From positions 21,654-85,653 of the forward strand of contig JADGRH010000002.1 in assembly GCA_017881075.1 (NCBI GenBank): a DNA stretch of 64,000 nucleotides. Direction: 5' to 3'. This document shows positions 24,178-24,612 of the stretch, piece by piece. The position numbers and the translations under genes were made by a program. How positions within the stretch are numbered: the first letter of the stretch is position 1; every line of letters starts with the position of its first letter. Below the pieces are notes generated by a model. The model saw nothing but the letters and a program-made list of their open reading frames with translations, did no database searches and had not been told where the DNA came from. The DNA is from Minisyncoccota bacterium. GTDB taxonomy: Bacteria > Patescibacteriota > Minisyncoccia > Phycocordibacterales > CAJBRS01.

Positions 24178-24246
24178 TGGACGTGACGGGAATCGAACCC
24201 GCTCACCTCAAATGGTAGGTTTGAGGCGCTATCCAATAGCACGCCC
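24178..24246 (-). ncRNA. non-canonical tRNA-like gene 1 (69 nt)
   Basis: GGGCGTG/CACGTCC acceptor, GCTA-TTGGA-TAGC short D-arm, 7-bp stem CCTCAAA/TTTGAGG with loop CCTACCA, canonical T-arm GGGTTCGATTCCC; C33/C37 and 7-bp anticodon stem are atypical. Confidence 0.5.
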
Positions 24247-24331
24247 ACGATGTGAATTACCATCTCACATCAATATGAATAATACTGATGGGTAATGAAA
24301 TAGATTAAAACGAAAATTAAATTAAAAATAA

Positions 24332-24351
24332 AGACCGCATCTCTGCGGTCT
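24332..24351 (-). terminator. intrinsic terminator hairpin (AGACCGCA-TCTC-TGCGGTCT) with a long U-tract on the minus strand
   Basis: seen directly; lies between the promoter at 24379-24406 and tRNA-like gene 1. Confidence 0.65.
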
Positions 24352-24356
24352 TTATT

Positions 24357-24373
24357 GCCTCAAACCTACCACC
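24357..24373 (+). other. copy of the anticodon-arm 5' strand of tRNA-like gene 1 (GCCTCAAACCTACCACC), inverted relative to the gene
   Basis: exact complement of 24213-24227; covaries with module head B. Confidence 0.8.
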
Positions 24374-24378
24374 ACTAA

Positions 24379-24406
24379 ATTATATTTCTTTACTTTATTT
24401 TGTCAA
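24379..24406 (-). promoter_or_regulatory. near-consensus sigma70 promoter on the minus strand (TTGACA-16-TATAAT) firing toward the complementary segment, terminator and tRNA-like gene 1
   Basis: reverse complement of TGTCAA at 24401-24406 and ATTATA at 24379-24384. Confidence 0.6.
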
Positions 24407-24428
24407 AGCTTTTTATTTAAAAATTCTA

Positions 24429-24475
24429 CGTCGAAAGTCTGCTGATTTCGACGCGATTTTTACGCTTAAAAATCG
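24429..24475 (+). other. two adjacent perfect hairpins (CGTCGAAA..TTTCGACG; CGATTTTTA-CGCT-TAAAAATCG) immediately 5' of repeat R1
   Basis: perfect 8-bp and 9-bp inverted repeats; the same pair is at 33504-33550 and 34566-34612. Confidence 0.8.
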
Positions 24476-24612
24476 GCTGGGGGTCTGGGACGATGCTCCC
24501 GATTTCTTAGTTTTGCAAAAACTGTAGAAATCGCAGTCCTGTTAAGGGCTCCCTGTTTGTTCAAGAGCAAAGCGATTGACTACAAACAGCAGTCCCCTTG
24601 GGAGGTTGGAAC
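24476..24612 (+). repeat. repeat R1, interrupted by a ~109-bp insertion between ACGAT and GTTGGAAC; left half reads GCTGGGGGTCTGGGACGATG
   Basis: seen directly. Confidence 0.85.

Follow-up and report, generated by a model that had tools for sequence, protein, structure and literature searches.

What is a gene doing at the head of a cassette array when it looks like a tRNA and yet is missed by ARAGORN and the Rfam tRNA model? The question is raised by a 64,000-nucleotide stretch of contig JADGRH010000002.1 (assembly GCA_017881075.1, positions 21,654 to 85,653) from a Minisyncoccota bacterium, referred to here as the window. Two related segments of it, head 1 and head 2, each carry a 69-nt tRNA-like gene on the minus strand at the left edge, and each is followed by an array of small genes separated by a repeated 27-mer. 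On the basis of sequence analysis of these two copies from one genome, we suggest, with a probability of roughly 45%, that each gene specifies a tRNA-like domain (TLD) of tmRNA type that inhibits trans-translation, and that a cognate antisense RNA keeps it in check, the two forming a control or addiction module that anchors the cassette arrays. The RNA pairing in this proposal is much better supported than the toxin and antidote roles.

The tRNA-like genes and their predicted antisense partners

The presence of two paralogous heads, which an earlier inspection of the letters alone (the sequence-only reading) had reported, was confirmed. Over 300 bp (24173-24472 and 33248-33547) the heads are 88% identical, collinear and free of indels, with an offset of 9075 bp. 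In both copies the homology begins 5-6 nt past the TLD discriminator, at the 3' end of the gene, and no target-site duplication was found at either ~400-bp head. All of the elements listed in the sequence-only reading are present, but the promoter and the terminator lie on the minus strand and read toward the tRNA-like gene rather than toward the array.

Both genes have a 7-bp acceptor stem (GGGCGUG/CACGUCC, including a G3:U70 pair), a T-arm GCGGG-UUCGAUU-CCCGU one linker base away from a middle hairpin, and a discriminator A with no encoded CCA. The acceptor stem and T-arm are intact, as originally described. The 4-bp mini D stem (CUAU-UGG-AUAG) also stands and abuts the acceptor directly, sequence and fold agreeing that the U8/N9 linker is absent, but the D loop described as 5 nt shrinks to 3 nt if an inner U-A pair forms. 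Similarly, the middle stem has the seven Watson-Crick pairs and the loop CCUACCA attributed to it, but RNAfold extends it to nine pairs. The overall fold is a compact cloverleaf with a tight four-way junction, at -30.6 and -31.6 kcal/mol for the two genes (z = -3.3; 0/200 shuffles fold as well). All seven differences between the genes fall in stems. Six of them make up three compensatory pairs in the hairpin (CCUCAAA/UUUGAGG in head 1 vs CUCCGAA/UUCGGAG in head 2), and the remaining one turns a T-stem G.U into A-U. The stems therefore differ and keep pairing, as had been claimed, and the compensatory changes suggest that selection acts on RNA structure. It is the minus strand that bears this structure, because the G.U pairs (G3:U70, the T-stem pair and one in the head 2 version of the hairpin preceding the TLD gene) hold on the minus-strand RNA only and would be A-C on the other strand.

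ARAGORN made no call at either head, its sole tRNA in the window being tRNA-Glu at 6284-6355, and an Rfam run at gathering scores (cut-off for RF00005, 29 bits) returned no tRNA there. In a permissive Rfam scan the best family for both copies was tmRNA (RF00023; scores in Table 1). The alignment to this model uses its 5' and 3' tRNA-like parts only, with 286-312 central model positions reduced to 9-11 nt. The genes share with the tmRNA TLD the 7-bp acceptor with G3:U70 and the T-arm GGUUCGAnUCC; the mRNA-like domain (MLD), with its resume codon and tag frame, and the pseudoknots are missing from the 69 nt. Several hallmarks of a canonical tRNA are missing as well, as there is no linker, the D loop has 3 nt, the stem has 7-9 bp and position 33 is a C. 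The likeness to the TLD of tmRNA is evident at the sequence level, and we class the gene as a TLD-only tmRNA variant, neither a decoding tRNA nor a full tmRNA, the latter in view of the missing coding domain and pseudoknots and of the sub-threshold score. This agrees with the sequence-only reading in treating the gene as something other than an ordinary tRNA-Val, and a regulatory tRNA-derived RNA fits the evidence better than a decoding tRNA does. The formal anticodon UAC (Val) that it assigned is probably meaningless in a gene that is tmRNA-like in its G3:U70 pair, its best Rfam match and its resemblance to the phage DS6A gene described below.

The partner RNA is predicted from the same strand. 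Each head has a sigma-70-type promoter matching the consensus at 12/12 positions, the sole such matches of either region, and each is followed on the same strand by an intrinsic terminator. The -10 box stands exactly 7 nt from a seed that would form nucleotides 2-16 of a ~55-nt small RNA (sRNA) and that is complementary to the TLD hairpin loop and then to its 5' arm. Directly after the seed come the GC-cored terminator stems (24356->24327 and 33427->33406), of 13 and 9 pairs, followed by a U-tract (UUUAUUUUU; consensus); the head 2 stem differs from that of head 1 by a compensatory G-C to A-U change. The regulator thus appears to have its own promoter and terminator in both heads, each recognised by consensus only. 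The inverted copy that had been noticed beside the gene proved to be exactly 15 nt long (24357-24371 and 33432-33446) and to correspond to the hairpin 5' arm plus loop.

This inverted copy carries the same three substitutions as the hairpins, so that each of the three is mirrored at the hairpin 5' arm, the 3' arm and the sRNA seed. The 15-nt pattern has four matches in the 64 kb (two targets and two seeds) vs 0.45 expected, and no further seed targets were found within the window. Changes between the heads are distributed unevenly, with 1/55 positions in the TLD outside the hairpin arms, 6/14 in the hairpin arms and 12/54 in the AT-rich linker, a pattern that looks like purifying selection on a TLD core combined with a diversifying, coordinated change of its "address". 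Cofolding gave a ddG of -19.7 (head 1) and -19.4 kcal/mol (head 2) for cognate pairs vs -12.3 and -10.0 kcal/mol for crossed pairs, an advantage of 7-9 kcal/mol. Taken together, the inverted copy is most likely an RNA partner and not a relic.

Genes of the same kind occur in phages. One is entered as "Mycobacterium phage DS6A (TLD only)" by Hudson, Lau & Williams 2014 (PMC4131195), and we located this gene at 28478-28560 (+) of JN698994 (L126 in our set of loci), where it is 83 nt long and unannotated in the GenBank record; it matches the tmRNA model at 43.2 bits with the same partial alignment pattern as the window copies. Its neighbours are gp33 and the DNA pol III gene gp34, and the phage also encodes an RtcB-like RNA ligase (gp76). 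A scan of viral contigs with the T-arm/acceptor 21-mer found three loci, of which L105 is a genuine 434-nt tmRNA (132 bits) and L104 and L106 are 69-nt genes of the window build. A short-spacing pattern that fixed only the two acceptor strands (GGGCGUG/CACGUCC) and the T-loop then matched 14 IMG/VR contigs of widely varying GC content (0.30-0.62; L104, L106, L114-L125), each with an unannotated gene of 67-70 nt. The T-stem of these genes co-varies, each lineage has its own middle hairpin, and the 5' part is often AAAUGGAUAG (UUGGAUAG in the window); ARAGORN called none of them. Because the acceptor sequence was fixed, the true TLD-only family is probably much larger. The viral genes have phage genes for replication, methylase and ligase functions beside them, and no integrases. 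In L106 there is in addition a second tRNA-like element of ~100 nt, about 100 nt upstream of the TLD-only gene (~6285-6385, minus strand; acceptor UCCACAG/CUGUGGA, T-arm GCCGGGUUCGAGUCCCGGC), which neither ARAGORN nor Rfam called.

The cassette arrays and the inserted block

The 27-mer that follows each head, GCTGGGGGTCTGGTACGATGTTGGAAC, is found at ~20 places, all on the plus strand and all within 24476-40083, spaced 230-1000 bp apart. Usually one small gene lies between two copies, on either strand and with its own promoter and terminator. Its origin became apparent from the large serine recombinase (LSR) encoded behind a Rep gene to the right of array 2. More than 2600 homologues of this LSR were found, mostly in Patescibacteria and nearly always behind a Rep gene. 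Relatives have a complete tRNA on the minus strand, whose 3' end is overlapped by that of the LSR gene (tRNA-Gln in L089, L107, L109 and L112; tRNA-Trp in L091). Several kb upstream there is a hybrid site, whose left half copies the tRNA acceptor/T-stem and whose right half is a conserved arm, (G)TACGA(T/C)GTTGGAAC. Right arms of the (G)TACGATGTTGGAAC type are joined to tRNA-Gln or tRNA-Trp 3' ends in L089, L091, L094, L107 and L112, and hybrid sites stand in tandem in L091 (two) and L107 (five). These hybrid sites identify the window repeat, by its sequence, as an attL/attP-type site of the LSR family with a left half resembling a tRNA-Gln 3' end. The attP-type sequence is GCTGGGGGTCTGG-TA-CGATGTTGGAAC, and the other half, GGACTCGA(A/C)CC, which corresponds to T-loop and T-stem, is present at the two sites that terminate the arrays. 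The arrays accordingly read as tandem accretions of LSR-mobilised cassettes.

A complete target tRNA at the LSR-proximal junction was not found in the window, where only a T-arm/acceptor fragment stands at the attR-type site and at the array 1 terminal site. L111 likewise has the fragment only, and the tRNA is complete in L089, L091, L107, L109 and L112. No TLD gene fragments were found at the far array ends, as a classical attL/attR picture would have them, and a low-threshold Rfam scan of three LSR loci found no TLD.

Other candidates for the repeat were rejected. For an integron or a cluster of attC sites lacking an integrase (CALIN), Pfam scans of 60 window open reading frames (ORFs), the larger ones included, showed no tyrosine recombinase, the LSR being the only recombinase, and the 27-nt repeat has no internal or flanking attC-like dyad as judged by sequence. 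A sigma-54 promoter, a dif/Xer site, and a repeat of a CRISPR or a CRISPR-associated transposon (CAST) were discarded for wrong spacing, lack of a dyad and gene-containing "spacers" of 230-1000 bp.

The Rep-LSR elements (window 42458-45047; L088-L094, L107-L112) have features of their own. Their attP is located within the 3' end of the recombinase gene and their target is the T-arm/acceptor of tRNA-Gln or tRNA-Trp, so that integration alters the C-terminus of the recombinase. They resemble the "cryptic inoviruses" of the candidate phyla radiation (CPR) of Roux et al. 2019 (PMC6813254). No description of their att logic was found in the literature, and nothing specific was found on integrons, serine recombinases or tRNA-like cassettes in Patescibacteria. 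This is apparently an undescribed and very large Rep-LSR family that targets Patescibacterial tRNA 3' ends and piles up tandem cassettes, relevant to genome plasticity in an uncultured phylum and as a possible source of new tRNA-targeting integrases. A LOOT RNA (Rfam RF03000, an sRNA motif of unknown function; 41920-42039, minus strand, 82 bits) lies a short way upstream of the integrated element's Rep-LSR operon and in antisense orientation to it, and a second copy occupies the same relative place in another Patescibacterial Rep-LSR element (L094 8818-8926, minus strand, 49.8 bits). LOOT may be a component of these elements, for example a replication or copy-control RNA or an origin.

Some att sites are interrupted. 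Two sites have their right arm split, with ACGATG on one side and GTTGGAAC on the other, by a ~110-nt structured element (CTCCC...GGGAG, with internal hairpins; 24496-24604 and 35569-35626), perhaps a small mobile hairpin element whose insertion inactivates them. Two sites carry a GC-rich hairpin of 32 nt (CCCGCCTGCCTAGCTACCGCAGGTGCGGGCAG; 34182-34213 and 35530-35561) where crossover presumably takes place, with GGTCTGG before it and (G)TACGAT after it. One cassette ORF, 27032-27394 (+), reads through a terminator-like sequence and the whole att site 27349-27376, so its C-terminus may depend on the recombination state.

The heads join these arrays through a highly conserved stretch, with 110/111 positions identical from the promoter through two perfect hairpins to the att left half. 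The hairpins and the first repeat stand where the sequence-only reading had placed them, the head 1 repeat being interrupted by the ~110 nt. From its T-rich leader rightward, this stretch (hairpins and att site, with neither promoter nor TLD) has a third copy at 34547-34648, and the T-rich leader also stands before several plain att sites. In its right part the head resembles an att-site arm, on the element side, into which two hairpins have been inserted. The hairpins are probably transcriptional insulators or a portion of the att-site P arm, and by their position they could shield the sRNA/TLD unit from cassette-derived transcription.

Head 2, array 2 and the LSR element together make up an 11.7-kb block (33248-44987) between the stop codon of an M23 peptidase gene and the promoter of AsnB. 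In relatives L009, L012, L015, L016 and L019 the M23 peptidase lies directly upstream of AsnB and the block is absent; the window AsnB is 57-58% identical to AsnB of Paceibacteria and Zambryskibacteria metagenome-assembled genomes (MAGs). Head 2 is therefore part of the inserted DNA and, judged from this comparison, forms its left terminus. The module appears to hold a fixed place at the left end of two cassette stacks. An intact canonical tRNA at the orthologous empty site, which the sequence-only reading had suggested looking for as an integration target, was not found, the M23-AsnB spacer of relatives being 10-64 nt of AT-rich sequence with no tRNA. Exact-protein look-ups of neighbour and cassette genes returned only short contigs of the same sample, which end at repeats. 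The organism is present in SRR10489828. A contig from another sample (L002 1-130, JGI 3300075606) encodes an identical SWIB protein with no head upstream and a different divergent neighbour gene; although too short to define an empty site, it shows that the presence of island 1 varies at strain or species level. Around AsnB of another Patescibacterial MAG (L027 8963-17830) there are at least four interspersed inverted 14-mer pairs (ATGAATCCCGTTAGA / CTTCTAACGGGATG), which could belong to a different cassette or attC-like system.

Table 1. Positions of the features of the heads, the arrays and the adjoining element in the window
Feature	Position	Strand	Basis or remark
Head 1 TLD-only tmRNA-like gene, 69 nt	24178-24246	-	Fold; Rfam tmRNA 30.8 bits, E 1e-10; own covariance model R1 101.7 bits
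Head 1 target within the TLD gene, hairpin 5' arm and 7-nt loop (GCCUCAAACCUACCA)	24213-24227	-	Exact 15-nt inverted match to 24357-24371
7-bp hairpin directly 5' of the head 1 TLD gene	24250-24272	-	Retained in head 2 through an A-U to G.U change
Head 1 predicted ~55-nt sRNA	24317-24372	-	Promoter/terminator scan, fold, cofold; predicted start 7 nt past the -10 box; ends inferred
Head 1 sigma-70-type promoter TTGACA-16-TATAAT (12/12)	24406->24379	-	Consensus scan; 100% identical in head 2
Head 1 two perfect hairpins (GTCGAAA-N9-TTTCGAC; CGATTTTTA-N4-TAAAAATCG)	24430-24475	.	Identical in head 2
Head 1, first att site of array 1 (GCTGGGGGTCTGG/GACGATG ... GTTGGAAC)	24476-24612	+	Split by ~110-nt structured insertion
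Array 1, five attL/attP-type sites ending 25480, 25707, 26324, 26885, 27376	25453-27803	+	One small gene cassette between each pair
Array 1 terminal site, right half T-loop-like (GGACTCGAACC)	27776-27803	+	Profile search; abuts RarA stop codon
Head 2 TLD-only tmRNA-like gene	33253-33321	-	Fold; Rfam tmRNA 36.0 bits, E 6e-13; R1 103.2 bits
Head 2 predicted sRNA	33392-33447	-	Seed 33432-33446 (GCTCCGAACCTACCA on plus strand) antisense to 33288-33302
Head 2 promoter TTGACA-16-TATAAT	33481->33454	-	Consensus scan
Head 2 two hairpins and first uninterrupted att site of array 2 (GCTGGGGGTCTGGTACGATGTTGGAAC)	33505-33577	+	
Array 2, ~12 further att sites and cassettes	34170-40083	+	Some with hairpin/structured insertions (34170-34228, 35517-35634)
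Third copy of the two hairpins	34567-34612		Without TLD or promoter
Diverged repeat copy	40047-40083		Profile search
Rep, G2P-like, PF05144	42458-43501	+	Pfam
LSR, Resolvase, Recombinase and Zn-ribbon domains	43476-45047	+	Pfam
attR-type site (GCTGGGGGTCTGG/GACTCGACCCGAGC) inside LSR 3' end	44960-44986		nhmmer; abuts M23 peptidase stop codon

A proposed inhibitor RNA with an antidote, and the rival readings

The proposed module would work as follows. The gene would derive from a tmRNA that kept its alanine-identity acceptor, D-loop analogue and T-arm and had its mRNA-like and pseudoknot part reduced to a short hairpin. A strong promoter ~125 nt upstream would fire toward the TLD gene and make sRNA in excess, and some transcripts would pass the terminator and be matured into the TLD by RNase P and CCA addition. 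When free, the TLD would bind SmpB, become alanylated and inhibit trans-translation, as reported for a similar engineered molecule that strongly inhibits tmRNA, perhaps via SmpB titration (PMC4131195). The sRNA would dock on the loop, zip 15 bp down the 5' arm, open the hairpin and so deform or disable the TLD, and the diverged addresses would keep the two modules independent, without cross-reaction. We infer in this scheme that both RNAs are made and pair, that SmpB and AlaRS bind, that ribosome rescue is inhibited and that the island is stabilised. The stricter form, an RNA-only addiction module in which a stable TLD toxin titrates SmpB (perhaps also AlaRS/EF-Tu) and a labile sRNA is the antidote, we regard as doubtful. 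If it holds, loss of the cassette island would be lethal or costly, and the diversifying address would let several modules coexist in one genome without cross-protection. The pair would then represent a new class of RNA/RNA toxin-antitoxin (TA) system and the first regulator in nature to have a tmRNA fragment at its core.

Several observations weigh against this proposal. No promoter of its own was detected for the TLD gene, which would depend on read-through of a good terminator. Both tmRNA scores are under the Rfam gathering threshold of 47 bits, and the D-loop analogue (UUGGAUAGC) has no tmRNA UUCGAC motif, which makes SmpB binding uncertain. No inverted copy of the middle was found within 800 nt in the viral TLD-only genes or DS6A, and a TLD therefore needs no antisense partner. 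The addiction and inhibitor roles are drawn from one statement in the literature and from analogy. Heads were found twice in a single genome; none was seen in ~40 AsnB loci or ~15 LSR loci of other Patescibacteria or in pattern scans of GTDB genomes and JGI metagenomes. Other searches were similarly barren. Covariance model R1 over ~60 Patescibacterial loci found true tRNAs only, blastn of the head against phage and plasmid collections gave AT-rich chance matches or nothing, exact head and repeat patterns had zero matches in viral contigs, and the D-arm pattern TATTGGATAGCG...GGTTCGATTCC matched no GTDB genome and had four JGI metagenome matches, all ordinary tRNAs.

The first rival is a cis arrangement, in which a single ~200-nt precursor (seed, "terminator" hairpin, linker, hairpin and TLD) acts as an autoregulatory leader and the 5' seed pairs intramolecularly with the TLD hairpin to gate RNase P processing or folding. 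Seed and TLD share a strand and are separated by 125 nt in head 1 and head 2 alike, no promoter was found between terminator and gene, and the linker and pre-TLD hairpin are partly conserved. However, a strong consensus intrinsic terminator should stop most transcripts there, and an intramolecular switch has no obvious need for private specificities, so that we consider this arrangement unlikely. It is still less probable that the gene matters only as DNA, kept as a portable attB or decoy for recombinases that target tRNA or tmRNA genes while its RNA is functionless. The LSR family does integrate into the T-arm/acceptor DNA of tRNA-Gln and tRNA-Trp, the TLD T-loop DNA GGAATCGAACC is the right half-site core of its real targets, and the gene lies exactly at the island boundary. 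But nothing is integrated at the 3' end of either copy, the arrays lie on the 5' side of the gene, which is the wrong side for the LSR family, and the acceptor half differs from the att sites of the arrays. A DNA site would also need no 5' acceptor strand, compensatory hairpin or matching distal seed.

The same co-variation of both hairpin arms with a distal copy is left unexplained if the 15-bp inverted repeats are invertase sites and the 129-bp segment between them (24228-24356) flips to switch the TLD gene on or off. A perfect inverted repeat flanking a short segment beside a strong promoter, with a serine recombinase nearby, does invite this explanation, but the promoter is outside the segment, inversion would yield no sensible product, and the repeat does not resemble the att site of the LSR. 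The only independent contig, a short-read one (L001), spans both arms in the window orientation, which is a weak test, and we judge an invertible switch distinctly improbable. A split, two-piece minimal tmRNA, in which the sRNA supplies a tag frame GCA/GCU ... UAA (A(I/S)KTAEMR(S/F)LFLI), is very hard to credit. Both sRNAs do hold an open frame of 13 codons, the first of them an Ala codon where the pairing region ends, but the frame crosses the terminator stem and its stop codon is past the likely 3' end. In addition, helix and frame stand in the opposite order to that of tmRNA, there is no pseudoknot, the tag end is unlike known tags, and the frame is conserved no more than ~85% identity predicts. 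Hardly conceivable at all is a decoding or mis-decoding tRNA, with the anticodon UAC read as Val or the RNA charged with Ala via G3:U70. The intact acceptor stem and T-arm and the 7-nt loop would suit it; against it stand the lack of an ARAGORN call and of an Rfam tRNA gathering score, C33 in place of U33, the absent 8/9 linker, the 3-nt D loop and 9-bp stem, and the middle hairpins of the homologous viral-contig genes, which have loops of 4-9 nt and unrelated sequences.

Comparison with known systems

TLD-only tmRNA genes, antisense pairs and tandem cassettes built by LSRs each have precedents, and the combination had none in our searches. In particular, no precedent was found in the literature searches for an antisense RNA that is apparently dedicated to, and co-evolving with, a tmRNA mimic.

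In the antisense systems IS10 RNA-IN/RNA-OUT, R1 CopA/CopT and ColE1 RNA I/RNA II, the partners are transcribed from opposite strands of the same DNA. The proposed TLD-sRNA pair is like them in that one RNA has a free 5' end that can pair with a hairpin loop of the other and then with one arm, in that a few nucleotides set the specificity, and in that diverged variants do not cross-react (a prediction in the window). It is unlike them in that the target is a tRNA-like RNA, not an mRNA or primer, and in that the two complementary sequences lie 129 nt apart on the same strand. Pairs from opposite strands co-vary automatically, whereas the same-strand copies of the window need selection to do so. 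Type VIII TA systems, such as CreT/CreA and SdsR/RyeA, pair an RNA toxin with an RNA antitoxin. Their resemblance to the module lies in the proposed logic only, a translation-perturbing small RNA checked by a second RNA and safeguarding a locus; there is no sequence or structural relationship, and toxicity in the window is only proposed.

As for the arrays, tandem cassettes are built by large serine recombinases in SCCmec/Ccr at rlmH, and other elements integrate into tRNA 3' ends. Like SCCmec/Ccr-type cassettes, those of the window are separated by direct repeats of hybrid att sites, most are without a recombinase, and one unit carries the LSR. Unlike them, the window arrays have a tRNA-Gln-like T-arm/acceptor as target and attP inside the LSR gene 3' end, their G2P-like Rep suggests an inovirus-like or plasmid-like element, and they start with a TLD/sRNA head and close with no more of a tRNA than a T-arm fragment. 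A single-gene cassette array with a repeated recombination site and a distinctive "head" is also reminiscent of an integron. However, the window has a serine-type recombinase and no tyrosine integrase, its repeat does not fold and lacks R''/R' inverted cores, and its cassettes have their own promoters and lie on either strand.

Compared with tmRNA itself (ssrA, RF00023), the acceptor GGGCGUG/CACGUCC with its G3:U70 pair and the T-arm CGGGUUCGAUUCCCG of the window gene are identical to those of the L105 tmRNA, which differs in having a tag frame, pseudoknots and an above-threshold score, a tmRNA being ~350 nt long and the window gene 69 nt. The closest parallel is the TLD-only gene of DS6A. Both combine an acceptor with G3:U70, a D-loop analogue and a T-arm with a stub hairpin that replaces helix 2, the MLD and the pseudoknots, both give a sub-threshold tmRNA match, and both are carried on mobile DNA, the phage in one case and the inserted block in the other. 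The DS6A gene differs in lying between phage genes and not at a recombination-site array, in having no complementary partner RNA nearby, and in a sequence unrelated beyond the conserved TLD positions. TLD-only tmRNA genes, previously known from this one phage, now also have representatives in the chromosome of a Patescibacterium and in 14 or more viral contigs, and mobile elements seem to use tmRNA mimics repeatedly. The putative co-evolving antisense RNA of the window offers a testable handle on whether such mimics are rescue inhibitors that need an antidote.

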